A DNA stretch of 63,566 nt, filler included, from Platydemus manokwari (GCA_037951405.1; 6 parts of 6 records of this genome joined end to end with filler, not necessarily neighbours in it); one strand, 5' to 3'; shown: positions 1 to 57,100, numbered from the whole stretch's first letter. Translations and numbers: made by a program. Notes: generated from the sequence alone by a model not told the origin.

Positions 1-1989
1 TTATTAAATAAATGTCAATTTGTATTTCATGTTTTAATTCAATATAAATATTGTTGAGTTTACCAAATTTCTTGATATATTGTAACTTAGGTCTAAACAA
101 ATTGAAAGTTATGTGCGAATTAGCTGAATATTAAAACCCTATCAATTATGAGTTATCAACTCTAAGTTATTTTCACTAATCAAGTCTCCCACATGAAACT
201 TCGAAATATTTGAAGCCACTGGGATTGCGTAATTTTACTATATAAAAATAAAAGGCTAATGATTTTGCACTTGCTCAACTTTATGTTAGACTCTTATCAA
301 GCACTTAAAAAAGGGTATGCTCGGCGAGATGACGGGATTAATTATGCTCCCAGTTTCACGAGACATTCAGATAAACGATTTTCTGAAAAACCAAAATTTT
401 ATTCTGGTGGAAAATCTAAACTTTACCGGGCAGGCGAGGCAATCGCGAAGGTTGTACAGAAAAAGAGTTTTGCGAAACGGATGCCAGATTCTATACATCC
501 AGTCACCAGGAATACTCATATAAAAACGATCCAAGGTCTGAAAGACGAAGTCCGAGAGGCCAAAAAGATCAAAATTTTGAAAATCTCAGAAATGTCCAAA
601 AAATTGAAGATCAATTATTAGTAGGCTTGGCAAAGATCATAAATGAGTACGCACAGAGGCAGCGAAAGTCAAAATCAAGGACCAAATATGACAAATCCAG
701 GTCGGTATCCAGAAAAAACTCCAAGCCCAGATCATATGCTGACGCAACGAAATTCAATAAAAAATCGAATGAATATGATCAAAGAAATGATAAACAGAAC
801 ATTAGACACATTCGTTTTGGTGATGATGGCTTTCAAGAAGTAAAATACAAGAAAGGTAAACATCAAAAGAATTATCAAAAAGTGGAAAAAATAAAGATAA
901 TCATCAATAATGCTAAAAGACAGATTGAGCGCAAACAAAAGCAGATCCCAAATAAATACCCATCAATGAATTCGGACAAAAATAGCAATACAATTAATAT
1001 CCAAATCAAATGTGATAATTTTGAATATCCGAGACAAACATGTGGCAAGTTATTGGTCCAAGAGCTTCAAAAGAAACGATGGTGAAAAAGCAACGAACAT
1101 TGAACCTTCTAAATAATCTGAGGAAAAGATTTTATTTTATAACAGCATTATCAGGGTTGTACTCAGTCTAATTATTTTTCACTTGAAATTAAGGTTAGAC
1201 CTTTAGGTATCTAGTTTTCTCCAATAGTGAAGTCTTCATACTTACTATTGAAGAACTTGCGAGACTTAAGAGTTAGAACTAGCAAATAATGAATATAAAC
1301 CACATAAATACAACATGCAAGTGTAGCTGAAGATAAATGTTAAAAAACATGTGGAGATTATTGGTAAAATACGAAACATGGGAAAATAAAGACAATGGAC
1401 ATAGAATACTAATAATGCGGATAAAAGCTAACAAAAGGTATAAGACGTTGGAAAATAATAAATAATAATCTCTGAACCTTCATCACTTTTAAATAATGTT
1501 GGGCACAACCCTTTAATAAATAATAATAATTACTAAATAAAAATTTTTCCAAATATCTGTACTGCCCCAATCTGTTCTGAAATTATTTTTTTTACTAAAA
1601 ATAGAATCATAATGAATTAAAAAATTAAAAATAGAAAATAAGTATATATAGATTATAATCCAGTTATAATAATAGCAAAACTAAATAGATAAATTTTAAT
1701 AAATAATATCCATAAATATAATTAATACATTAAGCAAAATATAAAAGAGAACTACTAATATAAATAAGAGAAGCAATTCATAAAATTCATGACAAATTTC
1801 ATCGATTGAATTGGATTTTTCGATTTTAGCAAGCATCGTGACAAGTCAATCTGTTTTTGAAGGATTGTATCGATATCCTTGTTGAAGATTTTACTGAACA
1901 CATCCTGTGGGATGAGTTTCTCCACAACAAACGTAGTTACACTTGCAGATCCGGAGGGATTAAGCCAGCTGCTGAAATCGAGTCAGTAA

Positions 1990-2430
1990 GTGACTAAGAC
2001 CGATGAAGAGGACCCCGATTTGAATGTTAAATGGTCTGATCTTAATAAAATATTAACACAATTTCAGAACAGTCAAAAGTGGAACACAAACAATGAGTAC
2101 GCGCGCAGCCGAGAAAATGGCGCACACAATTATAATTATAATTATTATAATTATTATCGATATAATAATGATAGGAAATATAATGATAATAGATTTGGTA
2201 ATAGAAGGCAAAATATCGGACGACAGAATTTTCCAAATACACATAATCGCAGAAGTCCTAGAAATAATCGAATATTCACAGGTAACAAAAGAAATTATAA
2301 TAATCAGAGTAAAAATAATTATACTTATGATTATAGGCACAGAAATAATAATTTCCAGTGAGATAATAAGCCAAGAAGCCAGTCCGCTGACGGATATGAG
2401 AGACAATCGTGGAGGAATAATAATAATAAT
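1990..2430 (+). pseudogene. Probable gag C-terminal remnant (Asn/Arg/Tyr-rich) of the Gypsy element in contig 1
   Basis: Low-complexity N/R/Y-rich ORF 1990-2361 directly upstream of, and on the same strand as, an RT fragment; no diagnostic motif. Confidence 0.35.
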
Positions 2431-2444
2431 TTAAACAATACAAG

Positions 2445-3170
2445 ATGGTACCAGTAAAGAAGAAAGATGGTGAAGTACGACTATGTGTTGATTACAGAGA
2501 ATTAGATAAAAAGACGAAACAAGATGTTTTTCCTTCACCAAACACAGGGGAAATATTCGACAAGCTAAACTGAGTGAAATATTATAGGAAATTAGATGTT
2601 AATAAAAGATATCATCAAGAAAGTGAGAAATATGAAAGATAAAGAAGAAGGTATTGAGTTAGAAAAGGAAAACGCAGTAAAAGCAGGAAGTGTAATGAAG
2701 ATAAAATGGGAAGAAGCACAACGACAAGCATTTGAGACATTAAAAAAGAACTTGACACAAGCACCAATATTGAGATATCCGGATATGGAGAAATCATTTA
2801 TTATCATAACCGACGCAATTGGAGGAGCGTTAGAAGTTGTACTAAGACAACATGATGAAGGAGAATCAGTTCACGCTTTTGCATATACCAGCAAATCATT
2901 AAACGGAGCTGAAAAGAATTATTCAACAATAGAAATAGAAAGTTTAGCAATCATGTTCACATTAAATGAATTCAGTCGATATGTTTATGAAACAGAGATA
3001 ATATTGAAAACCGATCACAAACTCTTGGAAAGCTTAATGAAACATAGAAACACATCAAGCAGATAAATCAAATGGGCATTAAAATTAGAAGATCACAATA
3101 TGAAAATAGCTTACATAACGTGAAAATCCAACGCAAACGCAGATTCATTATCAAGAATACCAGACAATGA
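2445..3170 (+). mobile_element. Degenerate Ty3/Gypsy pol: RT N-terminal fragment plus RT-connection/RNase H
   Basis: 2445-2573 reads MVPVKKKDGEVRLCVDYRELDKKTKQDVFPSP (Gypsy RT start); ORF 2596-3066 WEEAQRQAFETLKKNLTQAPILRYPD...IITDA...AEKNYSTIEIESLAI...KTDHK, continuing through a frameshift and stop to KSNANADSLSRIP; central RT (YxDD) deleted. Confidence 0.93.
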
Positions 3171-4436
3171 AGAAAAATCAGTACTAAAAATAAATGCAAT
3201 AGATGCATTAAACAGTAATATCCATAAACCAAGAAGTGAGCAGAATATAAAAGAAATGAGGATGAAAGTAGTCAATTAAAGAGAATAAGAAGAAATATGT
3301 TAAGGAAACAAGCAGAAAATACTGCCAATGAATATTCATGTTACGTTTGGGGATTGCTAATTTTATTTCTATTAACCTTATCAGTCTCGAAAAATTATTT
3401 TATTGTTGTGAATCACTGTTGTCTCAATCAGTCCTTTGTAGTTCTGATCAAGCCCTACGTACGAACTATTGAAACTATTTATTTCTTTCATCGCCTTGCG
3501 TTTATTATTGTACGATGACAATGTCAAATGGCAACAATGATCAATGGTTATTTTGTGAACTACAATGATTTACCGAAAAATTATCAGTCTCAAAACAAAT
3601 TAACAAAGCAAATCAATAACAACGCTTGGGTTTTATAAAATGTTTATTGATACTGAAATTACACTAACACCAACTATAAATTACTAGGATATTCAAATGG
3701 CTAAATAAAATATACAATTATACGAAAATCCCTATCAAGCTTCAGGGTAAGTTACACAATTAATAAACCACACGCTCCTGCAGCAAAACCACCTTTCAAG
3801 GTTATGAGACAAAGCTCTATAATTGGAAATTTACACGAGTTTTATAATACCGATCAGTTGGTTAAATAACGATCGAACTTACTTTAACGGGCATATAATT
3901 GAATAAAGGCTTGGTACAATTCTTCTGACAAATATGGGTAGGATCGAATACGAGAAATATGTTTTTGTTATAGACGACGCACTTTACACAATCTTCCTAG
4001 TGGTTTCAAATCGGACGAAAGTTATGAAATTTTATCTCCTATTTATACGATTCGGGAAGAGAATTTAATCGTCACGGATTGTTGGCAAAATTGGATACAT
4101 CTAAATCTATTCCCCCGAGAATTACCATTTATTTTATAAGATAAAAATTCGCTGGTTGTTTTAGAAATATAAGTAATATAATATATTTAGATTTAATATC
4201 CCAAATTCTTTGAAAGTATTAAAATGGTTACTATTATTTTAACCGTGTAAAAATTATTATTGTTATAATAATAATTATTATTCTTTTTAACCAAATTATC
4301 ATGAAGATTTATAAAAAATTTAATTGAAAAATAAAACAAAAGATAACACTTGATTTATCAAGCTTGGCAAAAAAAATTACTGCTTGAATAATCAAGCCAA
4401 ATTGATACATTTTGATACAAATTGATACATTGAAAC

Positions 4437-4862
4437 CTATTAACAGTTATAACAGCAGCAACGAAACAACAATTATTATTAGTTTATTACTATGGAGCAT
4501 TAGGAGGACATTTATCAAAAAGGAAAACTTATGGGAAATGACGATAAAAGTTTTATTTGGATAATATGTTAAAGAATGTAGAGCAATTATGCAAGCAATG
4601 CACATTATGCGCAACAAGACGAAACACAGGAAGGAATAAGAAGATTTCACTTAAGCCAATACCACCAGCTACAAGATCAATGGAATTACGTGAAATGGAC
4701 CTCAGGGATTCGTTGCCAACAACTTTAAGAGAGAATAAATATATTATACTTTTTTGTGATTATTTCACCAGAATGAATGGAGCGTTTGACACTGAAAATC
4801 TTCAAGCTGAAACCATAACCAAGTTACTAATAGAAGAAATAATATTAAAATATAATAAATAA
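4437..4862 (+). mobile_element. Degenerate Gypsy integrase (HHCC zinc finger plus start of catalytic core), truncated
   Basis: YYYGALGGHLSKRKT...CKQCTLCATRRNT...LKPIPP...NKYIILFCDYFTR...QAETITKLLIEEIILKY, with stops. Confidence 0.9.
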
Positions 4863-4899
4863 CGAGAAGAATGGTTACCAACAAAAATATCAATACAGT

Positions 4900-5110
4900 G
4901 AAAAAGTCATAAAGGCAACAAAATCAATAATAGCATCAACAATGCTAATAATAGTAATGTTAATAGTAATAATATATTGCAAATGTGTATTAATTCACAG
5001 AAGAAAAAGGAGAATACGACTACACACAATACGGACAGCAGTAGCAGCACCTACTAATATAACTAGAGCAGTTGCAACAATACCTAAATTAGCAGTAGTA
5101 GCTTCAGCGC
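4900..5110 (+). pseudogene. Possible env C-terminal transmembrane anchor remnant
   Basis: STMLIIVMLIVIIYCKCVLIHRRKRR: hydrophobic span, then Cys, then a basic stop-transfer cluster, immediately 3' of the truncated integrase. Confidence 0.4.
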
Positions 5111-5519
5111 TATTAATATTAGTACCATCCGGTGAACGAAATTGCCATCAGTCACAGTTAAATTATTTACTAGAGGACGAGAAATTTGCCAAATTCATTA
5201 TAAAAGGCTATCCCGGAATGGTTCCTGTAATGGTTCCAGAATTTACCAAGAAGAATCTTCAAAATCAAAGTAACACAACATGTCAGCTTATTAGGAGACA
5301 GATGTTGGAAATAAATTTGGAAAGAAATGGTAACACATCAAATATGAGGAGGAAAAACGAACGGTTACAATGTTCTTGTAAAGAAAGTCAAAGCCAATAA
5401 AATGTATCGAGCACAAATAGCGATGGAAACATCAGCCAAGGAAATAGTAGTGCAAACCCTATATATAGAAGAAAGGGTTTATATCATGAGGGAAAGCCAA
5501 GGAATACAATTATGTAAAT

Positions 5520-5980
5520 AAAAATACAATGCCTTTTTTTGAACACAAAGTTTGCAACCGATTACAATGAAAACATCATCCCACATGGATGGGAATAATG
5601 GACTATAAGGGCAACATGCTCTTTAGTTCATATTTATGCTCTAGAGCGCGTTAAGCGATTAAGAATTGAGAGGCAAGTGAAAATGCATGAGCTGAAGAAG
5701 ACTTCAGCCATACTGGAGTGCGTTGATCGAAACCCAATAGTTCCAACAACATTATTCAGAGCACAAATTAATCAAAGAATTTGAAAGCTAATTCCACTAG
5801 ATGAAGAAATGAAGAAGACAATGGCTCCAAAAGGACATATGATCATATGATCCGGAAGCACCTGCGAGAGGAATACTACCCTACAGAGAAATTCAAAGAT
5901 GGTCAACTAAAGTCCACAAAAACCACAGAATCAGAAAGAAAGAAAAGGAAAAGGATAAGAAAAGAGGTCGAAGTAGAAAA
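5520..5980 (+). pseudogene. Degenerate DEDDh (REX4/ISG20-like) 3'-5' exonuclease domain, copy 1, in the retroelement 3' region
   Basis: Reading across frameshifts: FLNTKFATDYNE/KHHPTWMGIMDYKGNMLFSSYL. LNTKF is LDTEF (ExoI) after two G>A changes, and the KHHPxxxGxxDYKG block is shared with copy 2. Confidence 0.6.
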
Positions 5981-7403
5981 AGATCGTATAAAAAACTGCG
6001 GAGGAAAAAACGAGGAACTCATATCAGAAAGAAACAGAAAAAGACGAGGAAATTCTGGAGGATGTCTTAAGAATCGAGGAATCCCTTGACGAATGTGAGG
6101 AATGGATAAAGGGAGAGGAAAACTCACCAATGAATTTTTTCCGTTGCCAACGGCAAACGAAGATTCGCAGGCATATTAATTTGAAGAGAAAAGAAAATAT
6201 CAATATCCTGAAGTGAATCCAGACGTCGATCTGAATAGTCAAATCTGAATAGTCAATTTATACCCCTACAGCATATTAAAATAACTATGCGAAGCCCGGG
6301 AAAGTAACAATGAAGGGACAAGCCATCAATGAGTAAACAATAGCTACCATTGTAGAGGGGAAAATATTAACCATTACGTTAACAATAGCAATGGTACTGA
6401 CAGGTACCAACACCCACACACGTTGCGTATAGTGGGTTCCAGTCGAAAGTCTAAAGGTATAAGAAAAGATATGAAAATAGTTATTATTAAAATATTTTGT
6501 TATTTATAAGCAATAAATTGTTATTTACAAATCAATATACAAACAGTATAATGATGTGACTCATGATAAAGTATGAGTATAGTAAGCAAACTAAATTGGG
6601 GAAAATTAGAGAACGAGAACACAGAACTTAAAAATTTAATTATTAGGAATTTAGAAATGATGCAACTAAATGTAATAATAATAAAGTAGTGAAAATGCTG
6701 AATGTAAAGGTGATCTCGGCAATCAATGAGGACTGGAATCGCTCACAGAGATCATATCTTAAACCCAAAGTAAGAATCATGTCATATATCACTGGCACCA
6801 AAGTAAAAATTAATAAACCCGAATTTAATGCTTTTTATTTCAGGCACGGATATTAAACAAACCCAAAAGGCAACATACTCCAGCAGATTTTACAGAGGCC
6901 TGCAATAGTCCATAGCCAAGGAGACAACACATACAATAGGACTATGACAGTATACAAGGATAGAAAAGATACCCAATAAGCTAAAAGCCCCAACCAAGAA
7001 TAATAGAACCTTTATAATAGTACACATCCTAATTCAGGGAAGATTAAGACTTGGAGATTTACTACTAAATATCCCATTTGGGACACATAGAATTGGGATT
7101 CACGTCATATCACCTAGAATAACTTTAAAGTTACGGACGGAGGAACACGATGTAGAGTTCTTCTCCACATTAAAAGTCCGTCTGAAATTAGCCCAGAGAC
7201 CGACGTGGAAGGCCAGCACTCTAAAAATCCATCAGAGCTCAATAATTAGAGTCTTTGATTTGGCAGCAACATTTGCTGTGGAGCGGCAAATGGTGGCAGA
7301 AGAAGCATGGCTTGTAGATATCTCATAAACATCATAGAAACGGAAAAGCAATTGCCGTTACAGGCACTAAATAGAGGATTAAGTTTTTAAGGAGTTGATT
7401 GCA

Positions 7404-7945
7404 ATGTCAGAGGTGCGAAAGGTGATCATCTTTGTAGACTTGAAAACAGCAGAGGATTTCTTTGGAAAACATCACCCGGCTTGCGTAGGAGTGATAGATT
7501 ATAAAGGAAAGACCTTAATCGAATTTCGTATCTAACCGAAAGCCGAGATTAAGGAGTATAATACTAGGCAAAACGAATTGGCAGAAAGTAACTTAAGAGG
7601 ATAGGTTGATGAAGAATGGGCGTAAGTGAGGCTCGTGGAAGTATAGCGAGGGAAAATAATAGTGAGGCAGAGATTGAAGGAAACATTGGCAACCATAGGA
7701 GTACGGCTAAAAAGGATAATGGGAAAACTGGATTTAAATGACGCTTCCATCATAAATGAAAAATTAACCAACGAAAGATGGACATGGGTCCTTAAAAAGC
7801 AAGAATATCTGTATCAAGCAAGATATAGGGTATTTATTATAGAGTAATACGACAAGTGATGAAGAAAGAAGAAATACAAGACACCTTAGATAGTGCTAGA
7901 GAGATATATAAAAATGTGAAAGAAGAATGAAAGGACCACGAGAAG
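7404..7945 (+). pseudogene. Degenerate DEDDh (REX4/ISG20-like) 3'-5' exonuclease domain, copy 2
   Basis: One frame from 7404: VIIFVDLKTAEDFFGKHHPACVGVIDYKGKTLIEFRI*PKAEIKEYNTRQNELAESNLRG*...V*RGKIIVRQRLKETLATIGV; after a frameshift, EIQ...AREIYKNVKEE* (TGA where REX4 has W). Colinear with REX4 motifs (LDCEM; ARVSIVDY.G; KP...I.DYRT..SGI; GKILVGH.L..DL; LY..V..EW). Confidence 0.72.
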
Positions 7946-8749
7946 AATACGCAACAAAGAAGATGGCAAGAAAAGGTGTCGACATATGAAATACAAGAAA
8001 AAAGCAAAGCAAAAACCAACACCCATCATGGAATGGGCAGACCCACAGCCAGAACGCTGCTCATTGAAAAAGACGTGCAAAGAATCTGCAGACTCATACT
8101 GTTAGACGAAGGGGTGAAAGAGAAAGAAACAATGGAATCCAATAGATCATATAAGCATTTGATCAGATAGCATCTGGAGAAATACTTTCCTCTGGAGAAA
8201 TACCCTAGTAAAAGGAAGAGAGCAGAAGAAAAACAGACTATGAAGCAGCAGGTGGAGTGCATAACATGGATTTAAAAACTGATATCACAGATGGGTAAGA
8301 AGACCAGGACGATGACTTACAGGACTTGCTGAAATGGAGCTGTGAATATGTGGTAGCCGTTGCGATTAAAAAGGAGAGAATGGACGAAATAAAAGAAAAA
8401 TGGGATAACAAAGGAATACGGGAAAGATAAAAATAATTGATAAAAGATAAGGAATCCAAAAGCCAAAAGTGGATAGAGATGTTGGAGATAGAGGCAGCTG
8501 TAAAGGAATATAATAAATAGCTGCAAGAGTAATTATAAAAGAAGAAGAATCAAAAGTTGCAAGCCCGAAAGGAGAAGCAGCGTCCTTACTAGGAGAAGGG
8601 CAAGAGAGTGCCGGAATAAAAGAAACCAAAGCCTCGGGTTTAAAAATCAGAAAGGTATATGGGATATATCCCATCGTCAATACTCAGAAGAAATAAGGAA
8701 AAAGCAGAGAAAATCGAAGAAATTATTTAAAATCCACGTGGACGAGGCT

Positions 8750-9178
8750 TGTTACACCCCGAAATACTGTTGGGAACACCCACCCAGCGCTTACCAGTAT
8801 CCTTCCATTTTATACAATTTAGCCTTACCATCCCAGTTTATACAATTCATCCTCACATTGTTGATAAATAACACACATGTACCCTTTTACTGTAATACCC
8901 ATGTATAGCACACACCATGTATTATACGCATAACAATAGCGTATATAACCGTGTTTAATATATAGCCATGCATCACATACTCTAGCAAAATGGAAAGAAG
9001 AGCGCAAAGCAAAAGACAACATGATTACTGTGAACATAATGATTATTGCGTTAATAATAAACAATGAATTATGTGTTTTAAAGAGAATTGACAATACATG
9101 TGTTCTAAAGACAATTTATTATACGAAATAATTATATTTTATTATATTAATTATTTTTATATTGTGACAGTTGTAACG
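8750..9178 (+). repeat. Candidate 3' LTR of the contig-1 Gypsy element
   Basis: Begins TGTTAC where the purine-rich coding-like sequence ends, with a possible GTAAC(G) end at 9173-9178; no clear PPT or partner LTR in the window. Confidence 0.25.
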
Positions 9179-9779
9179 ATAAGAGTATTAATATGTGAAG
9201 TAATCATATCTGTGCTTGATTTTCATAATTTTTATATTTTTATATAAAAATCGGATGGACAAGAATTTCGGCAGATATAAAGAATAATAATATAACTTAA
9301 CAAAATAATAATATAGTAAAACAATATTATAAAATAATGAGATAAAGTAATAGTACAATAAAATAAAATAAAAACACTGCGATCAGTCAAAAAGGCGAAC
9401 CAGGAATATTACATAGAAAAATCATCACAGGCAAAAATCATCAGAAAAACATTACTCCAATAGAAAACGAGATAAATCATTTATTCAAAATAATTACAGT
9501 CGGATAAATGAAATATTGATCAATCAGTAGGTGTGGATATTTTTGTCAAATCACTTTGATCGGAGTAAGAGTCATTTATTTGGATTTGAATTAATCTTCA
9601 TCATATTCATTTTAAACATTTAAAAAATTAATTACACTTCGGCATCACTTACATTTGCAACAAGTGGTGTTCAACGCAGTTATAAGATCGCTTATATTTA
9701 ACAAGCTATATTCAACATCATTATAGTACTATTATTTTAATCTGCAGAAAGTTTTTGATTTATGCAATTTAAAATAAGG

Positions 9780-9978: not shown

Positions 9979-10006
9979 TTTTTATGGATTATTTTAAATT
10001 TAAAAA

Positions 10007-10536
10007 ATGAGTACAAATTATTTTTGTCAGATTTGTAAAAAAGAAATTTCTAAAAAGGCAAAACATGAAAAAACCAAATCTCATATGAATGGTACGAACA
10101 AAAGTAAGAATAATACGGGTATGAATTGTAAAAATAAAAGTAAGAAATTAAGAAATTTTGAATTTATTGGAGGTGACTCAACTAAGCTACCAACCGGAGG
10201 TGATATACGAGAAAAAATTACAAATAATCAGTTTTTAAATAAATTTAGTACTGGTTGTCATCCTGGAAAATTTCATTAAAAAAGTATGAATCCATTTAAT
10301 AAAACTAATCCTGTACATAATTATACAGTACCTGGAATGAATCTTCAAGAACATTTACAAAATTATAATCAGATTTTAAATAGTTATAATGAAACAGGAG
10401 ATTTGAATATTGTACCTATTCCAAAAGAAAATCATCAACCAGTAAATAGAATAGATGCCATAGCAATGCAACATGATGTTGATTATTTATCAAAAGATTT
10501 ACAAGATAGACATTTAGCCGATGTTAAAATGATACA
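10007..10536 (+). pseudogene. Parvovirus-VP1-type phospholipase A2 (Polinton/Maverick/adintovirus PLA2X-like) with an N-terminal C2H2-like finger; one in-frame stop; cut by contig end
   Basis: ORFs 10007-10279 and 10286-10536 are in the same frame; CQIC...H.....H finger; HNYTVPG resembles the YxGPG Ca-binding loop; PVNRIDAIAMQHDVDY...DLQDRHLAD matches the P.N.LD..A..HD..Y...R..AD catalytic motif. Confidence 0.82.
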
Positions 10537-10636
10537 NNNNNNNNNNNNNNNNNNNNNNNNNNNNNNNNNNNNNNNNNNNNTTAATTAATTAANNNNNNNN
10601 NNNNNNNNNNNNNNNNNNNNNNNNNNNNNNNNNNNN
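10537..10636. other. Artificial contig linker
   Basis: 44 N + TTAATTAATTAA (stops in all six frames) + 44 N. Confidence 0.97.
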
Positions 10637-30049: not shown

Positions 30050-32280
30050 GTCATACAGAACTATGAGGTATAAGGCCACACTTACAAAAATCTAAACAAT
30101 TGAACTGGGACATAAAGGCCATGTTTTAAAAAAAAACACTTCGAAGCTCAGTACTTTCCTAACAATGTTCATTACAAATGGTACAGATTGCAAATGGAAC
30201 AGGTTCAGAAAGCTTATCTAACAAAATAGTTAGAAGAGATTACCATCACATTCGAAGCTAATCCAATCACTTTCACTCTAGTGGATGCGACTATTATAAG
30301 TCAGAACCAATTGAGAATATCCTAACGAAATTATATGGTCAATAATTCAAATGAACCAAAGCTAATGAATATTCGGCTAAATCGACATTAAGTATATCCG
30401 ATTGTCAACCCTTGAAATGATTCAAGAATCATAAATTCCCCAATATTAAATCAAAAAGAAATTTAACATATTATACCAATCAATGTAGATATTATAGGAA
30501 TAAACTGAAATAAATTATCAATTTTAAGAAAAATCAACTTGTATTTCAGTCATCTTAAAAGCTGCAGTAAAAGTAGCTGAATCTGCACCCTTCACCATCA
30601 CAAGACAAGACGGAAATGAAAATGAAGAAATCCTTTCTGAACCTAATTGAAACTTCAAGGATATGACAAACATTCCAATTAGCGCAATGCTTTGCGATAA
30701 TCATTAATAGTCAAATACCAATACTGGTTATTAATCACATCAATGAACCCATTAAAATAAAAGAACGTTCAAGCATGTGTCAATGAGCTTACAGAACCCT
30801 TGTTACATCAGAAGATAAAGTAGAAAGACAATTACATGAATTACTCTATCAGAGAAGTGTAGTATTAATCCAATACCTCTGACGCTCAAATATAATCACG
30901 TTGAAGAAAAATAAGTAAGAAGAAGACCATGCAATGACTATCAAAAAGTAAACGAAATAACAAAATTTATTAACTTTTCATTGTTAAATACATATCAAGC
31001 CAGGTACCAGGGGCTCTAATTTTCTCGACTCTTGATTTAATCAATGCCAATCACTGCATTTACAACTGGAAAAAATTGTTATAATGGACACTAATGCCAC
31101 GTATCTAAATTTCATTGAATTACCAAATACCATAGTATACTGAGATGATATTATTATTTTCTCAACCAATTATAACACATTTCTTGAAGACTTAGCACAA
31201 GTATTTGAATGAATAGGACAAATAAAGAAGTAAAATACCTGTCGAAAAAACCAGATAAAACATATATAGAAAACGTGGCAAATTTTCCGTCATCAAAAAG
31301 TAAGAATCAAGTTCAATAATTTTTAAGTTTAACAATATACTTTAGGAAGTTTACACAAAATTGGGCAAGAATCTCCACATAGCTAACTACGTTACTACAA
31401 AAGTTAAACCATTATTTGGTAGGCGGGACGAGAAAAGGTGTGCCAGATCATTTAAAAAATTCAAGTCAAGAACCAATGTTTAGACATCTAATCCTTAAAA
31501 TATCATGTTTAATAACGACAGATGGCAGTAGCTACACCATTGGAGTAGTACTACTACAAAGGTGCTGGCTATCGATGCGGAAAATAAGAAATATTATTGG
31601 AGAACATTAAAGGAGAAGTAAGAAAATGGGGCGAATCGTGTCAAGCATGTCAACCAATGAAAAATACGGGAAGTATATATGGAATACCACTTAAACCAAT
31701 GATAACATCTTCCACATCAATGCAAATGATATCCGTGGACATTGTAGGACCTTTGTCTTTCATAAACAATGGAATAATAGTCATTTGCGATCGTCTTACA
31801 ACATAGCTTGAACCTAATCCAATAGCCAGTACAATTTTTAAAGTCTATATTGATTAAATAATATTCAGACATAGAGTACCAAAGTGTTTTATCACAGATA
31901 GAGGAATCGATTTCCTTAGTAACGAGGTATCGAGAATAGATAATAATTTGCAAATAACTAAATTGAACACCTTTTCATACTAGCCGCAAACTGGTGGACT
32001 AGTAAAACTAACGAAAAACTACTTAATATACTTTCATCATACACCAATAAGGCATACAACTATTCGTTCTTACATTCCATCATACTTGTTGACATATCAG
32101 AACTTCAAAATGTACTTCTTTCTGTCTAATGAATCTACGAGATAACAACTTGCCAATATATCTCAATATATGGATATCGAATATTATGCATTATGAATGA
32201 AAGAAAGATTAGCCAACGCATTTTAAATAGCCAAACACAATGTCAAATACAAACAGGAACAATTTACGAAATATTATGAT
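30050..32280 (+). mobile_element. Highly degenerate Ty3/Gypsy pol (PR-RT-RH-IN)
   Basis: VQIANG (protease-like); RPCNDYQKVNEIT and FSTLDL; IVY*DDIIIFS at 31132-31164; ITTDGSSYTIGVVLLQ; SCQACQ...PLKPM...ISVDIVGPL; TDRG and PQTGGLV. Confidence 0.88.
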
Positions 32281-33080
32281 AAATATCCAAATAATCAATT
32301 TATTAGAAACAATTTTATAATAACTTTCCTTTGGGTCATAATTTTTCATAATTTTCATTACTGTTATCAGTGAGTAATAAACCTTGTATTTGTAAATTAA
32401 TTCATTTTATTTCACTGAAAATCCTGATAATATACCTAAAATGTAGCATGTACTACCAGGTCGTTAAAAATTACAACAATTTCAAATCATTTCTTTTGAT
32501 TAAAGTTTTATTATCTTTTCCATGGATATTATTACACATATTACATATAATAACTATCATAACATTTTAAGAAATTGTTTAAATATTGTGTAAAAACGTG
32601 AATTAAATTTAAAATACATTAATTTGATTTCCATTTAATATTACTCATAAAATTGAAAGTAAAAAGCAAAATTTCATTAAAAACCTTCTATTAACAACAA
32701 ACAAATTCTTGTAGTCAACGGTGATTTGTACTTTTTTTCAAAAAAAAGCAAATTATAAAAGAAAAGATTTTAATCTAATAAAATTATGTGGTATTATAGC
32801 TGTCTAAATCTACAATCACAACCAGAGAAAGTGAGACTGTTTTTGATCACAACCGCGTAATGAGCAAGGATGTAATAACATATCATTTACTGAAGAGACC
32901 CCTCTAAATTACCGTCTTTTGCTAATAAAAAATTAGTAATATGTAAAAAGCCTATTGGTATATCAATTACTTCTAGACACTGAATTAAATGCACTATTGT
33001 GGTTGAAGCATCAACAACCCTATTTCAAATTGCTTTGGCACATGTATTTGCATAATTTCACCTGAGCCGATTATCCAGTT

Positions 33081-40551: not shown

Positions 40552-41110
40552 ATGCATTCAGAGAACCAATCTTCTTCAGGCCAACAGCCAATTCAACACC
40601 AGATACGACTGGTTCCCCAAGCTGATTTTGCTAGTTGCCTAAAGCTTCCTATCGAACAGCATGGTGGAGACCCAGTTGACTTCGTGGATTTTATGACAGA
40701 CTATTTTATGTACTCATCTGTATAAGGTTGGACTGAAAGGACAATGATCCAAAGACCTCCTCTTTATTTGAAAGGCGCAGCAAGAGAAGCCTACAACCAA
40801 ATCGATAGACGAAACATTGGCCAATGGACAGCAATGAAAAAAGCCTTATCACAGAAGCTAATCAGCGGAGACGCTGGCCGCATTATTCGTCAAAAATCCT
40901 TCTCCAAATCGCAGAAAACTAGTGAAACAGTAAGCGATTTTGCGTATACTTTGCAGAAACAGCATTAGGACCAAAATCGCAGTGGCCAACACAAACGCGA
41001 AATGTGATTGAAGATCAATTTTCGAAAGGAATGCATCAACACATCAGCACAGTGCTCAGCTCGTTGACTATACCACCTACGATGAACTCATCGAAAAAGT
41101 TATGAGGGTG
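40552..41110 (+). mobile_element. Degenerate Gypsy gag (capsid)
   Basis: GGDPVDFVDFMTDY...*GWT...LYLKGAAREAY...W..MKKAL...QKTSETVSDFAYTL (retrotransposon gag with an MHR-like QxxxE.V..F motif). Confidence 0.85.
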
Positions 41111-41406
41111 TAAATAAATTCCACATCGATAATTCGTTAGCCTGCCACATATGCCACAGAAACAGATCTCTCTTTTATGGGTAAAATTGATGATCAATTC
41201 AAAGTTAATTTAACAGAATCTGAATCACAAAATCAATGGGAATCAGAAATATCGATGATGAAAAATAAACTGGAACGATGGATCGAGAGGCTAGGAGGTG
41301 AAGAAGGGCTTAATTTAATGATCAAATCAAATAGATTGTTGAGATGGAGAAATGAAGATTATGTTAGTAGTAGTGAGAATATTGATGACGATGAGAGTAT
41401 TAAAAA

Positions 41407-42564
41407 ATGAGGAGTTGGAAAATAAAACTGGAGACTTGTATGATACGTTTTGACGAAATTTCGAGAATAGTTTGGAATACTTTGACGGACAGCCGTAAAC
41501 TTTCTAATTTAGAAAATGAATTATGTTTGGTTATGTCATCGCAGCTTTTGAGGAGTAAACCTATTAATTCAGAATTTATGAAGGTAATGACAGAAATGTA
41601 AGATTTTATGGCAGTTACTTGTAAAGGAAAAGATTTTGAGATTTTTGTTGAAAAGTGGTTAGGAGATTTGATTAAAGTAAAGCTAAATTCTTTTTCGAGA
41701 GTTCGAGATATTAGAAGCCAGATTGTCGGAGGAGATGCCCCGCTTAGGGGTTTGAATCAAATTCTATGTGATGATGATTATGTTATGATTTATGGCATCG
41801 TGCCAGAAAACGATATTGTTGTGAAAATGGAAAAAGGATGTATAGGAGAATGGAGAAACTCTGCTGATATGTTAACACAGGTGAGTATACTTTTAAAAGA
41901 AGAGGCTTTGAATTTTAGCGAAATAGTGAAAAATTTGGAAATTATCAAGTAAAACATATAAATGTTTCATAATTTGAGTGAGTTAATATATTTGTAAGTA
42001 CCGTATATAGAACAATATTTACGTATTAATTCTACTTTCAGAAGTATTTTCACGTTGTGTGGAAAAATGTGGAAAAAAAAAGGCTTAAGTCTACCTCCTT
42101 TTGAGATCAGTTTAATGAAATTAGGAGTTGAAATAGAAAATTTCAAAGAGCATTGGTTTACAAAAGTAAAGAGAATCAGAAGAAGGATTTCAGAAAAGTT
42201 GATAAACGATGCAGTTATTATCTTATCATATTGTGGTCAAAATTTTGATGACGATGAATATTTGTTGAATTATGGATGTGTTACTGGAAAAGCGAATAAA
42301 ATTAACGTTGAAGTTCATTACGAGCAAGGCATTATAAATGAAAATGTAGAATATGAACGAGCCAATTTGCATAAAAATGATGTTACGTACGACATTCAAG
42401 AGGCAACATTTAACTTACCATTTTATCAAGATTTGGATTCTTATAATAATAATTATATTAATAATGATGCATACGTTGTTATTAAAATAGAAAATATGGA
42501 ATTTAATGAAATTGAATTAATAAATTATAAAAGTCGAATATATTTCATGAAATCAAAAAAATAA
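41407..42564 (+). pseudogene. Accessory ORF with two ubiquitin-like domains (~41635-41829, ~42100-42315), interrupted by in-frame stops
   Basis: ORFs 41407, 41608 and 42055 share one frame. FEIFVEKWLGDLIKVKLNSFSRVRDIRSQI...LRGLNQILCDDDYVMIYGIVPENDIVV and FEISLMKLG...FTKVKRIRRRISEKL...LSYCGQNFDDDEYLLNYGCVTG...INVEV follow the ubiquitin pattern IFV..L.G..I...V..IK.KI...L.F.G..L.D...L.DY.I. Confidence 0.62.
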
Positions 42565-42603
42565 GAAAAGTAAAATATTAAGAAGTGGAATGTTATCCTT
42601 TAA

Positions 42604-42796
42604 CATTTAACAATTTTTATGATGATGATAATTATATTTGGCTTCGGTAACGAAGTTAGAAACTTAATTGCATACGATAGCTCTAAAACAGAGATGGGAA
42701 AAATTTATTAATTAATGGATATAACGGAATGCCCAGAAGCATATCCGATGAAAATCTCTAGTGGCAAAAATGAGCATTATTTTCTACATCAGGAAG
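42604..42796 (+). pseudogene. Env-like glycoprotein N-terminal remnant (signal peptide plus AYD[C] motif)
   Basis: IFMMMIIIFGFGNEVRNLIAYDSSKTEMGKIY*LMDITECPEAYP...LHQE, in the same frame as the UBL ORF; resembles the LxAYDC...YSL.DV.EC...Q start of chuvirus-like/class III retroelement glycoproteins. Confidence 0.5.
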
Positions 42797-44194
42797 CTAT
42801 AGGAAATTTATACAAAATTTCTTGCATATTGCTCATCCTATTAACACACTACTTAAAAAATGCAACATTTCAATGGTTAGAACAGAAACAAAAAGCTTTT
42901 AAATTACACAAACAAAAATTAACTACTAATTCCATAATACGACATCCAGATATGAAGAAACCCTTTACTGTAAGGACATATGCTAGCGGGTTTGCTATTG
43001 GTGCTGTATTGGGACAGCATGATGATGGCGTTAAGGATCACGTTATTGAATACTCTAGCAGGGCTTTGAAAAAATACAAAAAAATTATTCAACTATAGAA
43101 AAAGAAGCATTAGCAATTATTTTCTCAGTAGTACACTTTCGACAATATTTACTAGGACATAAAATTATATTATATACAAATCATAACCACATAAAATGGC
43201 TTATGAATCACAGAGATGTTGCTAGTAGACTAATTAGATGGCTCATGACACTCCAACAGTATGATATTGAAATTAGATATAGATCTGGAAAATCAAATGC
43301 AAACGCAGATACACTATCGAGAATTAAGGAAGATGAAATTGCCTATAGAAAAACCTCTTTTACTATTTTAATGGCAGCAAGAGACGCTACGTACATGAAT
43401 AAATTTAAAGATGATCAAGAAAATGATAGTGAAATTAAACGAATTAAAACATCATTGGAAAAACGAGTTTGTAGTGTAGACCCAAAGCAATTAATACAGC
43501 TTGGATACTTTATACATAAGAGTTTATTAAAATATTATACTGGTAAGGGCATATTATTAGTAGTACCTGAAAAACATAAACATATTTTACTCATGCAGTA
43601 CCACGACGGCGCATTAGGAGGTCATTTGTCCCCTAGAAAGACATTATCTAATCTAAAATCAAAAAAATATTATTGGATTACAATGGAACAGAATGTTAGG
43701 TCCTGGTGTAGATCTTTCAAAATATGCACAATCAGACGAAATACTTGAGTACGGCCTAAAGCAATATTGACACCCATGCCAGTATCTTCTGCACCAAAGG
43801 TAATGGCAGCCATGGAGATAGTTGGACCATTTCCGGAAACTATAAATGGCAATAAATATATTTTTGTATTTTGCGATTACTTGACAAAATGGCCTGAGAC
43901 CTCCGCAATTAAAAATCAAAAGGCAGAAACAGTCGCTAATGTGTTTATAGAAAATATTGTTTTTCGATTAGAGACCCTTAAGAAAATATTAACTGACTGT
44001 GGTACTTACTTTCTTAGCGTACTATTCAAATCCATAATGGATCTTTTTGGAATTTTGAAACTAAACACATCACCGTATCATCCACGAATAGATAGACTGG
44101 TGGAGAGATTCAATGGTACTTAAATAAATATGCTGTCATCATATACTGGAAGAACTCAGTGAGATTTGGACCTGTATATCAACCCTTGCTTAAA
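42797..44194 (+). mobile_element. Degenerate Ty3/Gypsy pol: RT thumb, RNase H, integrase; cut by contig end
   Basis: YRKFIQNF at 42798; FQW...QKAF; ASGFAIGAVLGQ; NYSTIEKEALA; SRLIRW...GKSNANADTLSR; YHDGALGGH; IVGPFPET.NGNKYIFVFCDYLTKWPE; ILTDCGT; TSPYHPRIDRLVERFNGT. Confidence 0.95.
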
Positions 44195-54124: not shown

Positions 54125-57100
54125 ATTATTGATAAAATTAAGATATTAATTTTTATATTGAAATTAAATAACTAATGATAATCAAATTGAGATATTATTT
54201 TTTATAATGAAATTAAATAATTATTGATAATGAAATTGATAAATCAATGATAGATAAGTGAAAATTAAATATTAGCAATATCATCTTTAATACTGAAATA
54301 TTGCAACTAATTTTTTCATTTTCTATAATAAAAGAAACAATTTAAAACTGAGAAAATTAAATCTTTTTATTGTGTTAATTTTGTCGATTGCAAATTATTG
54401 GTCGATAAAATAGTCTGATAAAAATGGTATAAGAATTATGACATTGATTATTTAAGCTGATCTATTTTTGCGAAAAGATTTGTTGAGAAGTAAGTGGTTG
54501 AAACATTTAAAGGATTTAGATAATTAGAAATCGGTTAAAAATCAATATCAAGTAATATCAATAAACACATTTTCAAATTTTATTTGAATATTGATTTTAT
54601 TATTGGTTGAGAAACGAAAATTCTTGGAATTATTAAATATTTAAATTAAATGAGACTTTTTATATGTTTTTATTTAGTTTCGCATACTTCACACTTTAAT
54701 TTATCATATTTATTCAAGTGTAATATGGAAAAATCGCTTATGTTCATAAGGCAAACTAAATAAAATTTAATATTCGTGAAAGCACTCTTCCATCGTAGTA
54801 AAATACAATTGCTGTTCAAATTGTTATTAATAGCTTAACAACCCATTAATTTCTAAGGTGTTTATAAATAATTATATTAAATCACTAAATGTATGTTATG
54901 TATTTAAAAGTATGAATCGAAATTTTTATAAAGCATAACAATTTGAAGAAAAATATAAACCTTTGTGAGAGATGAGTCGAATGCTTTCCTAAGAAGTTAA
55001 CTTTCAGGATAACACTATAACAATAATAATGATATCGCATTAATAATACAACTTGGAGGTTCTCTACAACTTCCTGTCTAATAACTCATTTCCTACCAAA
55101 TAAGAATATTGCATACCTTTTGAATATATTTTTGTTCTCAAGCATTTAGAATATGTTCTTTTACAAAGTGATCCAAGCCTTGATTTCTTCACTGTTTAAT
55201 ATAGTTTCTTGGGATGATCATGGCATTTATAATAATTGCCCAATTATTATCAAGTATGACTGTTGCACATAAAGTTTTCATTGTGTGTTTGTTGACGGTC
55301 TATCGTTACTATTATTTCAGCAAAAAGAATCCGTATAGATCCTTGTATTTCATTTTTTGTTAATGCCCTTGAACACAGGATTAGCGAATTAGGAAATTTT
55401 TGTAGAATATCGATATGGGTAGTCCTTATGTAAATATTGGTATTTTCATCGGCTAATGTGCAATTGCGACCTGATTCTAATGATTTTTTCATTACAGTAT
55501 GTGATTTCCAAAGAGTGATATTTCGGAAATAATAAGATTTCTTTGAGTCCCGATAAGACAAAAGATATTGGAGTCACTGAGATATGAATGTTTATAATTT
55601 CGGTTAGTGGTATGTTGTGTTAGATTATTTAAATTATTGTGCGTCAAGTAATAAATCGATGTAGTTAAAAGTCTTTGTCTTGGAAATTCAACATTGTTAG
55701 GTAGTCGAATTGATTTTTAAGAGTTGTATTTAGATCAAAAGGAGATTTAAAACGATAGGCCCATAAAGGCATTGTATTTCGCGGCTAAATGCTAGTCTTT
55801 CTTGGTCGCTAACTTTTGTGTGATTTTTCTGACAGCCAGTCTTCTTTGTTGGTTTCTGTTCTGTATTCAATTTTCTGGTACAGCTAGAGCGTAGGGCGAT
55901 TAATTATTTATTGTTGTACCACCGTTCTTGATTACGAGCTGAGTCTGTAATTCCTTGTAATTAAAATTTTCAACCTTCAGTGTTAGTTAATAATCTAACA
56001 GATAGATTAAATCAACTCTTGCTGACTGATTATTTTTATTATAAACTGTTCTATTATTGATATTTAGCGATCTTGAATGTAATTTGTAATTAATTTGACT
56101 TTATTTAAAATGCTATTCAATACTGAGTCGGCACAATTATAATTTATAAATTTTATTTATAAACTAATGAAAATAAGACGAATACTTTACAAAAAATAAA
56201 TCAAAATAATAAAATTGTAATCAATACTCGACTCACTATGGAAGTAGGTGGTCGAAAAACTGGCTCCAAACGAGGAATTGATGATAAAAAAAAATTAAGA
56301 TGAATGAAATTATAAGTTTACAAAATTAAAGTTATTAATTATCATTCAAATTTTAATCTTATCAAAATTATAAAAACTCATCAAGCAAAAAATGGCAATG
56401 AATTTCAAATGAATATAATCGATTACCTAGATGAATACAAGAAACGAGAGACATGAACATGCTTCTTTTGTTTAGGATCTGAGAAACAGGAAAATTCCGG
56501 AATACTTTTTAATTAACCCCTTTTATGCGTTGTATCATCATCCGCATGACCCACACTCTAACGTGATTTCGAGTAGCAGAAGTTACAGAGCGCAAGACAA
56601 TCACTAACTTAATAATAGATTCGCTATATGAAAGATGGTATGCATTGGCCAGTTAAAGCAAAAGCTATTTAAATTCAAATTATACCAAACTGAGACGAAA
56701 GCTACAAGAAATACTACCAGAAATAACCGCTAAACTTCAGGAGATGCATTTGAAGTATTGAAAAAACTGAGTCACAGGTTTTGATAACTAAAAAATGCAA
56801 TTTAATTCAATTTACAACAAATCGACACCTCAAAAATAATAAAATGTACATACGATATTAATACAATGATACTTTAAAATCCCTGCCTTAGACTCTCAAT
56901 ATTCTATATATCTTAGCACATTTTCGTGTTCTTTGTGTTTAGTTATAATAAAAAGGTTTACCAAATCATGAAAGGTGATATAATATATAATAGCATATGA
57001 TAACAATACTAAATATTTGTAGGCTAAGACATAGTGACATATAACTAGAATATGATAATAATCAAGTATAATAAATGATAGACTGCAATAAAGAAAAAAT

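Follow-up and report, generated by a model that had tools for sequence, protein, structure and literature searches.

The LTR retrotransposons Juno and Vesta of bdelloid rotifers carry an additional ORF3 for an RNase D-like exonuclease of the DEDDy type, and in the accessible text of that report copy number could not be tied unambiguously to the presence of such ORFs (Rodriguez et al. 2017, PMC5408684). DnaQ-like exonucleases have since been called a well-known accessory domain of LTR elements, with the rotifer work cited among others (PMC6338049). Burro/GYPSM1, a giant Gypsy element of planarians, encodes its env in frame upstream of the protease as well as RING and MATH/TRAF domains (PMC6431247), and a 2026 survey of env-bearing Gypsy elements described the order GAG-ENV-POL in nematodes, bryozoans and flatworms, its main text being free of the term 'exonuclease' (PMC13524379). 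Orchid Gypsy elements, in turn, have been reported to harbor an extra ORF for an AlkB m6A demethylase (PMC9289625). Here we describe an accessory gene in which an ISG20/REX4-type exonuclease is joined to a domain with a predicted AlkB-like fold. Among giant Burro-like elements, in one clade of which it occurs, the gene likely serves counter-defence at the RNA level; taken together, this is a reading toward which we lean modestly.

The window, i.e. the whole stretch of 63,566 nucleotides from Platydemus manokwari that was analysed, is AT-rich animal DNA, with matches to a Delta/Serrate ligand (E 3e-11) and to a ligand-gated channel (E 1e-7), and contains pol remnants in the Ty3/Gypsy (Metaviridae) order reverse transcriptase, RNase H, integrase on one strand (Table 1). 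We are highly confident, as to both identity and linkage to the element, that these remnants belong to a decayed, internally deleted Gypsy retrotransposon with one near-complete and one partial copy of the accessory gene. Its integrase is 43–48% identical to those of two metagenomic relatives introduced below (L002 and L003), to which a further remnant at 31.6 kb is only 31–36% identical. The frame at 4849–5400 gave no significant sequence match, and its hydropathy peak of 2.84 compares with peaks of 2.94 and 2.57 at the C-termini of the L002 and L003 polyproteins, each followed by a basic run. The repeat DNA that separates RNase H from integrase was likely inserted later, since a related copy on one contig of a public run (X1) joins position 3183 straight to 4467. 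Integrase and both exonuclease blocks are truly contiguous, because a single, independently assembled X1 contig of low depth spans 4604–8848 with one difference from the window; run X1 is the one public run that contains this DNA and may be the window's own source, such that this contig checks the assembly rather than providing independent biology. A search around the window element revealed neither LTR nor primer-binding site nor polypurine tract, the element lacks env and protease, and RING/TRAF sequences had no match in the window. The link between gene and element thus rests on contiguity and on the relatives.

Table 1. Coordinates of the decayed Gypsy element and its two accessory gene copies in the window.
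Feature	Position	Strand	Evidence
Likely gag C-terminal remnant	1990..2361	+	Arg/Asn-rich low-complexity frame; composition like L004 gag C-terminus; no Pfam match; inferred
Reverse transcriptase fragment, N-terminal part only	2445..2618	+	tblastn 41–45% to L002/L003 polyproteins, E 5e-9 and 2e-10
Gypsy RNase H, 2 stops	2701..3159	+	Pfam RT_RNaseH_2 E 6e-29 (ORF 2596–3066); 45–50% to L002/L003
High-copy repeat DNA, likely secondary insertion between RNase H and integrase	3184..4466	.	depth hundreds to thousands
Integrase zinc finger and start of core, truncated	4446..4853	+	Pfam Integrase_H2C2 E 5e-11; 43–48% to L002/L003
Likely C-terminal end of polyprotein: transmembrane stretch, then basic residues	4849..5400	+	hydropathy peak 2.84; inferred
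Decayed coding segment upstream of copy 1	5262..5407	+	paralog at 1297–1441, 62% over 146 nt, E 2e-7
Copy 1, partial DEDDh domain: ExoI region and ~40 residues beyond; frameshift, stops	5515..5702	+	family profile iE 1e-4; 0/200 shuffles
Copy 1 tail segment	5773..5892	+	paralog of 8078–8201: 67% over 127 nt, E 1.5e-4; protein score 80, 0/100 shuffles
Copy 2 N-terminal domain, predicted double-stranded beta-helix (AlkB/2OG-oxygenase-like)	6861..7325	+	family profile iE 7e-11 (match 6861–7148)
Copy 2 ISG20/REX4-type DEDDh domain, ExoI to past ExoII	7389..7799	+	family profile iE 3e-32; ISG20 E 0.008; 4 stops in 7401–7799
Copy 2 ExoIII and C-terminal helix, other frame	7817..7942	+	11 bits, 0/200 shuffles; tblastn with P0025 joins both pieces, E 2.5e-10
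Copy 2 tail segment, common to copy 1	8078..8201	+	nucleotide and protein match to 5773–5892

Several other remnants lie in the window. A second decayed element of the giant type (40558–44192, + strand) combines a gag match (Pfam E 0.001), a match to L003 residues 139–199 (E 2e-5), an env fragment (E 4e-5) and RNase H plus integrase at 46–55% identity to L002/L003, and a third, more distant Gypsy pol remnant (31–36% to L002/L003) occupies 31105–32283 (+ strand); an exonuclease gene was not found after either of these two in the window. A third decayed fragment of the exonuclease family, without a pol match nearby, is located on the minus strand at 55138–55369 (iE 0.018 for 55138–55290, 9.4 bits, 0/200 shuffles). 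A decayed coding segment that is 62% identical to 5262–5407 lies upstream of the gag-like remnant (1297–1441, + strand). Short ORFs at 10004–10534 (+ strand) gave a phospholipase A2-like match below the cut-off (PF08398, E 0.001); we presume that they might derive from a Polinton or adintovirus. Positions 10537–10636 and four other gaps are runs of N with a central 12-base palindromic filler, i.e. assembly artefacts.

The preliminary description had read the locus as two exonuclease domains downstream of integrase, centered on the blocks KHHPTWMGIMDYKG (5571) and KHHPACVGVIDYKG (7467). Both blocks are present and paralogous (local score 79 versus a shuffle maximum of 52, reached by 0/100 shuffles), and both are element-borne exonuclease remnants, but the two are not equivalent. 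Matches of profiles built from natural family proteins, with the whole window covered, identify copy 2 as a near-complete two-domain gene (6861–7942; 10 stops in 313 codons) and copy 1 as a fragment. The latter, about 60 residues long, is a partial domain because it spans positions 22–82 only of the 191 profile positions (24–82 in the whole-window match at 5520–5702), and because ExoII and ExoIII, sought with the family profile, were not found in it. A profile search for an N-terminal domain belonging to copy 1 was negative as well, and the segment at 5262–5407 did not match the N-domain profile (at least 65/200 shuffles do as well). The motifs LNTKF and VDLKT do stand ahead of the two blocks, the former in a frame that differs from the KHHP frame; copy 2 is indeed colinear with ISG20 through GKIIV (PDB 1wlj, E = 0.008, the best of 5 matches; ISG20L2, E = 0.1), and IYKNVKEE matches the family ExoIII segment at 7817–7942 (0/200 shuffles), in a frame other than that of the rest of copy 2. 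A Pfam RNase_T match was not obtained: the window read-through, with X at stops, matched 0 families. The stop-free frame noticed ahead of copy 2 exists, but it extends from 6948 to 7328 (126 aa) and represents a distinct N-terminal domain rather than a mere lead-in; it is in frame with the second exonuclease, from which it is separated by four stops at 7326–7380. Instead of the exonuclease alone, as originally perceived, the gene thus encodes a two-domain fusion with an AlkB-like fold.

A full phmmer scan with copy 2 yielded 36 matches, 32 of which constitute one family. P0001, P0002 and P0012, three top or long matches, were rejected as fish protocadherin repeats, and the insect protein P0028 was set aside as a protein with several REX4-like domains. 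Family members stem from ENA, JGI, Logan and MetaClust, and none of the family clusters that were looked up bears an informative name. Full-length members comprise ~350–1100 residues: the N-terminal domain is conserved, an RNase_T domain follows, and the tail varies. Of the 26 members in the alignment, 17 match Pfam RNase_T at an E of 1 or less. In word-index protein searches, copy 2 found no match, the family profile found only 4 members that were already known, and P0028 retrieved no host REX4 sequences; scans of viral contigs gave no relative. Apparently, these 32 proteins represent an undescribed, conserved, element-borne accessory gene.

The exonuclease domain of the family is a REX4/ISG20-type DEDDh domain, closest in fold and sequence to ISG20 and ISG20L2. 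The family profile matches ISG20L2 (3e-28; 7yw5), ISG20 (9e-16) and SDN1 (9e-13), with PolC and Pan2 being weaker, and in the model of the intact member P0003 (pLDDT 82, confident over both domains) the exonuclease domain superimposes on ISG20 (1wlj) with a Z of 19.6 and an rmsd of 2.0 for 159 aligned residues. The model of the window read-through adopts the same fold (pLDDT 81; exonuclease versus 1wlj, Z 13.8, rmsd 2.2 over 121 residues), yet the family alignment went into building it, so that it does not count as independent evidence; ESM Atlas feature matches stayed below 0.9 and serve as leads only. A DEDDy/DEED type is excluded for the family by the ExoIII His and the ExoII Asp in 23 rows and by the Z of 9.9 for RNase D versus 19.6 for ISG20.

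Catalytic residues were counted in 35 family rows, after 6 near-duplicates or fragments had been dropped. The D-E-D-H-D set is complete in 23 rows, one row is truncated, and 11 are degenerate with the frame kept open. For the active members, a 3'-5' exoribonuclease activity is predicted. Catalysis seems to be dispensable in some lineages, because those 11 of the 35 rows are intact and nonetheless devoid of catalytic residues. Copy 2 retains the first ExoI Asp only (one site is gapped in the alignment), and copy 1 is missing both ExoI residues, with no ExoII/III. The preliminary description had ascribed the ExoI changes to G>A-type decay. The codons are compatible with such changes, but decay is not shown to be their cause, since the Lys that replaces the ExoI Glu in both window copies is also found in the intact natural relatives P0008, P0017, P0020, P0035 and P0042. 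Beyond the active site, copy 2 keeps 30 of 45 conserved non-catalytic residues, full-length natural dead members keeping 30–37 of 44–45, and its ExoIII piece is most like that of the dead member P0025. The imbalance in copy 2 between catalytic loss and non-catalytic retention is not significant (p 0.06–0.11), and decay alone, at the level implied by the 10 stops, would remove four of the five catalytic sites with P 0.18–0.35. The tree did not bear out a placement of the window copies among the natural dead members and does not fix their position. On balance, it is only somewhat more probable than not that copy 2 was a dead nuclease already before the element decayed.

For the N-terminal domain, structure comparison points to an AlkB-like fold. 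Residues 1–132 of P0003 match ALKBH6 with Z 11.8 (rmsd 2.9, 132 aligned), followed by Ofd2 (11.1), ALKBH7 (10.7) and rice ALKBH1 (10.6). Cupins reach Z values of up to 10.4 over ~92 residues, whereas ALKBH6 covers all 132, and the model contains a double-stranded beta-helix with an N-terminal extension, a trait of AlkB/2OG-Fe(II) dioxygenases. With residues 1–149 of the window model, 2OG oxygenases, AlkB homologues and cupins score Z 8.3–9.8, and cupins tie; the ESM Atlas provided no usable feature match for this domain, and its structure matches were cupin-type. The predicted fold is AlkB-like, with AlkB and cupin not cleanly resolved. Plant RNA-virus replicases, several of which we take to carry AlkB domains, are among the top viral fold matches. 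AlkB and other 2OG-Fe(II) dioxygenases are characterized by HxD...H iron ligands and a C-terminal Arg. The family alignment displays no HxD...H set, no conserved Asp column and no late Arg column; conserved are one His column (20/25), an Arg, a Glu and an IPNxLK motif, and among 26 members there was no match to AlkB Pfam families. Owing to the missing HxD...H set, the domain is most likely not a working demethylase.

The genomic setting of intact relatives was derived from a metagenome scan with a 7-member sub-alignment, the full alignment being too diverse, which identified seven loci (L001–L007) in one assembly and probably from one host. In L002 and L003, the gene is located just downstream, on the same strand, of an env-PR-RT-RH-IN polyprotein of at least 3212 and at least 2978 aa, respectively, in which a viral fusion glycoprotein is in frame ahead of PR-RT-RH-IN and a membrane-anchored extension follows the integrase. 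The L002 polyprotein (1–9636) apparently contains more than one aspartic-protease-like repeat (2 Pfam stretches and further motifs), and its extension after the integrase is extracellular-like. In L004–L007, the gene closes an array of short ORFs, and an LTR with the same start in these four loci begins ~190 bases after the gene's stop codon. The arrays comprise RING and TRAF-MATH genes in L005 and L007 and coiled-coil-like ORFs in L004–L007, many of the accessory ORFs opening at a shared acceptor-like motif that ends in AG-ATG; such intronless chains of RING, TRAF-MATH and coiled-coil-like ORFs could pass for expansions of host TRAF/RING genes. The LTR of L004 (~3033–4613) is bounded by TG...CA inverted ends; a primer-binding-like site, which we take to be a tRNA-Lys site, and gag come next, a gene-LTR-gag layout as expected of an element that is collapsed or present in tandem. 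The L007 LTR gives way to unrelated flank, in L003 a purine run followed by TGT at 13720 marks a possible LTR start, and L001 is too short to show its setting. Overall, the gene adjoins pol or an LTR in 6 of the 7 loci, with pol and LTR never both surrounding it on one locus. Both of its domains are under purifying selection in the relatives: the six pairs among L004–L007, which are non-independent and in part near saturation, gave dN/dS values of 0.037–0.085 for the N-terminal domain and of 0.030–0.055 for the exonuclease.

The proposal of an LTR-element lineage with an exonuclease between integrase and 3' LTR is thus borne out, the gene following pol in L002/L003 and preceding the LTR in L004–L007, but a tandem module is not a trait of this lineage. 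One gene copy per locus was seen in 7/7 loci (some contigs are short), and since each relative has a single copy, the tandem in the window is a local feature. It would likely have arisen by tandem duplication inside one element: the two window copies pair with one another (97/87) in a tree of 41 rows, of which none is a named REXO4/ISG20 and in which copy 1 fills 23% of the columns, and tandem paralogous accessory genes do exist in relatives, as exemplified by two RING ORFs in L007. That the copies instead reflect two separate, nested or adjacent element insertions appears unlikely, albeit with some appreciable weight. Two insertions would agree with the single copy in each of the seven relatives, with the heavily rearranged region and with the scattered remnants therein, namely the paralog of the pre-copy-1 segment at 1297–1441 and the third family fragment at 55138–55290, but no pol, gag or LTR match was obtained between the copies.

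As to function, we propose the following scenario. The protein may be made from a spliced subgenomic RNA, as hinted at by the acceptor-like AG-ATG motif at the relatives' accessory ORFs. Its beta-helix domain, devoid of iron ligands, would serve to bind RNA, or a modified base therein, without demethylating it. Starting at the 3' end, the DEDDh domain would shorten or destroy RNA; targets could be small guide RNAs or element-derived RNA that triggers silencing, and catalytically dead versions may act as binders or decoys. Such a counter-defence role, which we advance tentatively and somewhat short of an even bet, is favored on two grounds: the gene stands as an accessory ORF of its own in the company of ubiquitin-ligase and TRAF genes, and one third of the members persist without catalysis, as would be expected for binders or decoys. 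RING and TRAF-MATH neighbours would fit host manipulation, and dispensable catalysis would fit defence better than an obligatory replication step.

The latter point bears on the main rival explanation, according to which the exonuclease serves the element's own replication, for example by shortening the 3' end of the genomic RNA or the tRNA primer or, alongside RNase H, by removing the RNA remaining on RNA:DNA hybrids while a very long genome is reverse-transcribed. The elements are giant, human REXO4 is described as acting with RNase H1 to degrade the RNA strand of R-loops (accessible text of PMC12915616), and 3'-end processing has been proposed for the DEDDy ORFs by Rodriguez et al. (PMC5408684). 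We nevertheless regard this explanation as rather unlikely, as the 11 of 35 rows without catalytic residues still have an open frame and the gene is a separate ORF that lies outside the packaged polyprotein and sits with RING/TRAF genes. Distinctly less probable is that the protein attacks other parasites or host RNA in the manner of ISG20 (antiviral action, competitor exclusion or host shut-off) instead of shielding the element from silencing. The closest solved relatives of the domain, ISG20 and ISG20L2, are in line with this idea, as is an antiviral defence proposed for retrotransposon accessory domains (available portion of PMC6338049), but dead versions are common. Least credible, and largely refuted on inspection, is a chance position of processed host REXO4/ISG20L pseudogenes beside a Gypsy fragment: although the best solved-structure matches are host enzymes, the window gene possesses the N-terminal domain peculiar to the element-borne family (iE 7e-11) and is far better matched by that family, which sits beside pol or an LTR at six of the seven loci.

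Taking counter-defence one step further, invertebrates might harbor a clade of giant, env-bearing Gypsy elements that encode a modification-reading nuclease, in which the dead AlkB fold would pick RNA by its base or end modification and the ISG20-like domain would destroy it, thereby suppressing piRNA/siRNA silencing, with dead and duplicated versions, as in the window, evolving as decoys. This is speculation that we consider unlikely to hold in full. The window copy is a fossil; as intact natural versions exist, an animal retrotransposon enzyme against small-RNA silencing would be directly testable, and accessory genes reveal host weapons against retroelements.

How does the gene relate to described systems? 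A DEDDh/ISG20-type ORF or an AlkB-like fusion in an LTR element was not found in the literature searched, which did not extend to the original Burro paper, Repbase reports and supplements, where it could be mentioned. The preliminary description knew of no such standard Gypsy feature; for extra exonuclease ORFs of LTR elements, the DEDDy type sets a precedent (PMC5408684). Judged by the accessible text on Juno and Vesta, their ORF3 shares with the family described here the principle of a DEDD-superfamily 3'-5' exonuclease as an extra ORF of an LTR element, and the same roles have been proposed. The rotifer enzymes, however, are of the DEDDy type with a DEED motif and belong to env-less clades, whereas our family is DEDDh, fused to a beta-helix domain and carried by env-bearing giant elements. 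Burro resembles L002/L003 in its very long single polyprotein with env before the protease, a likeness of architecture only, and L005/L007 in its RING and MATH/TRAF accessory domains and its accessory ORFs; the available part of its description mentions no exonuclease or AlkB-like ORF, and L002/L003 differ by the membrane-anchored extension and the fusion gene after the integrase. With the orchid elements, as far as their report is accessible, the common denominator is a large Gypsy element with an RNA-directed ORF of AlkB-type fold. There, the domain is a close, active homologue of plant demethylases, in contrast to the domain considered here, which has no AlkB sequence match and no iron motif and is fused to an exonuclease. 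The host proteins ISG20, ISG20L2 and REXO4, finally, share fold and motif layout with the exonuclease domain (Z 19.6 to 1wlj, profile E 3e-28 to 7yw5), but identity is ~25%, and the family is set apart by its N-terminal beta-helix, by its element-borne, single-frame gene and by the roughly one third of dead members. LTR elements would thus have captured a DEDD nuclease for a second time and independently, here from the ISG20/REX4 branch that restricts viruses in vertebrates, and the family would join two RNA-directed folds that are otherwise known apart from one another, in rotifer and orchid Gypsy elements and in RNA viruses.
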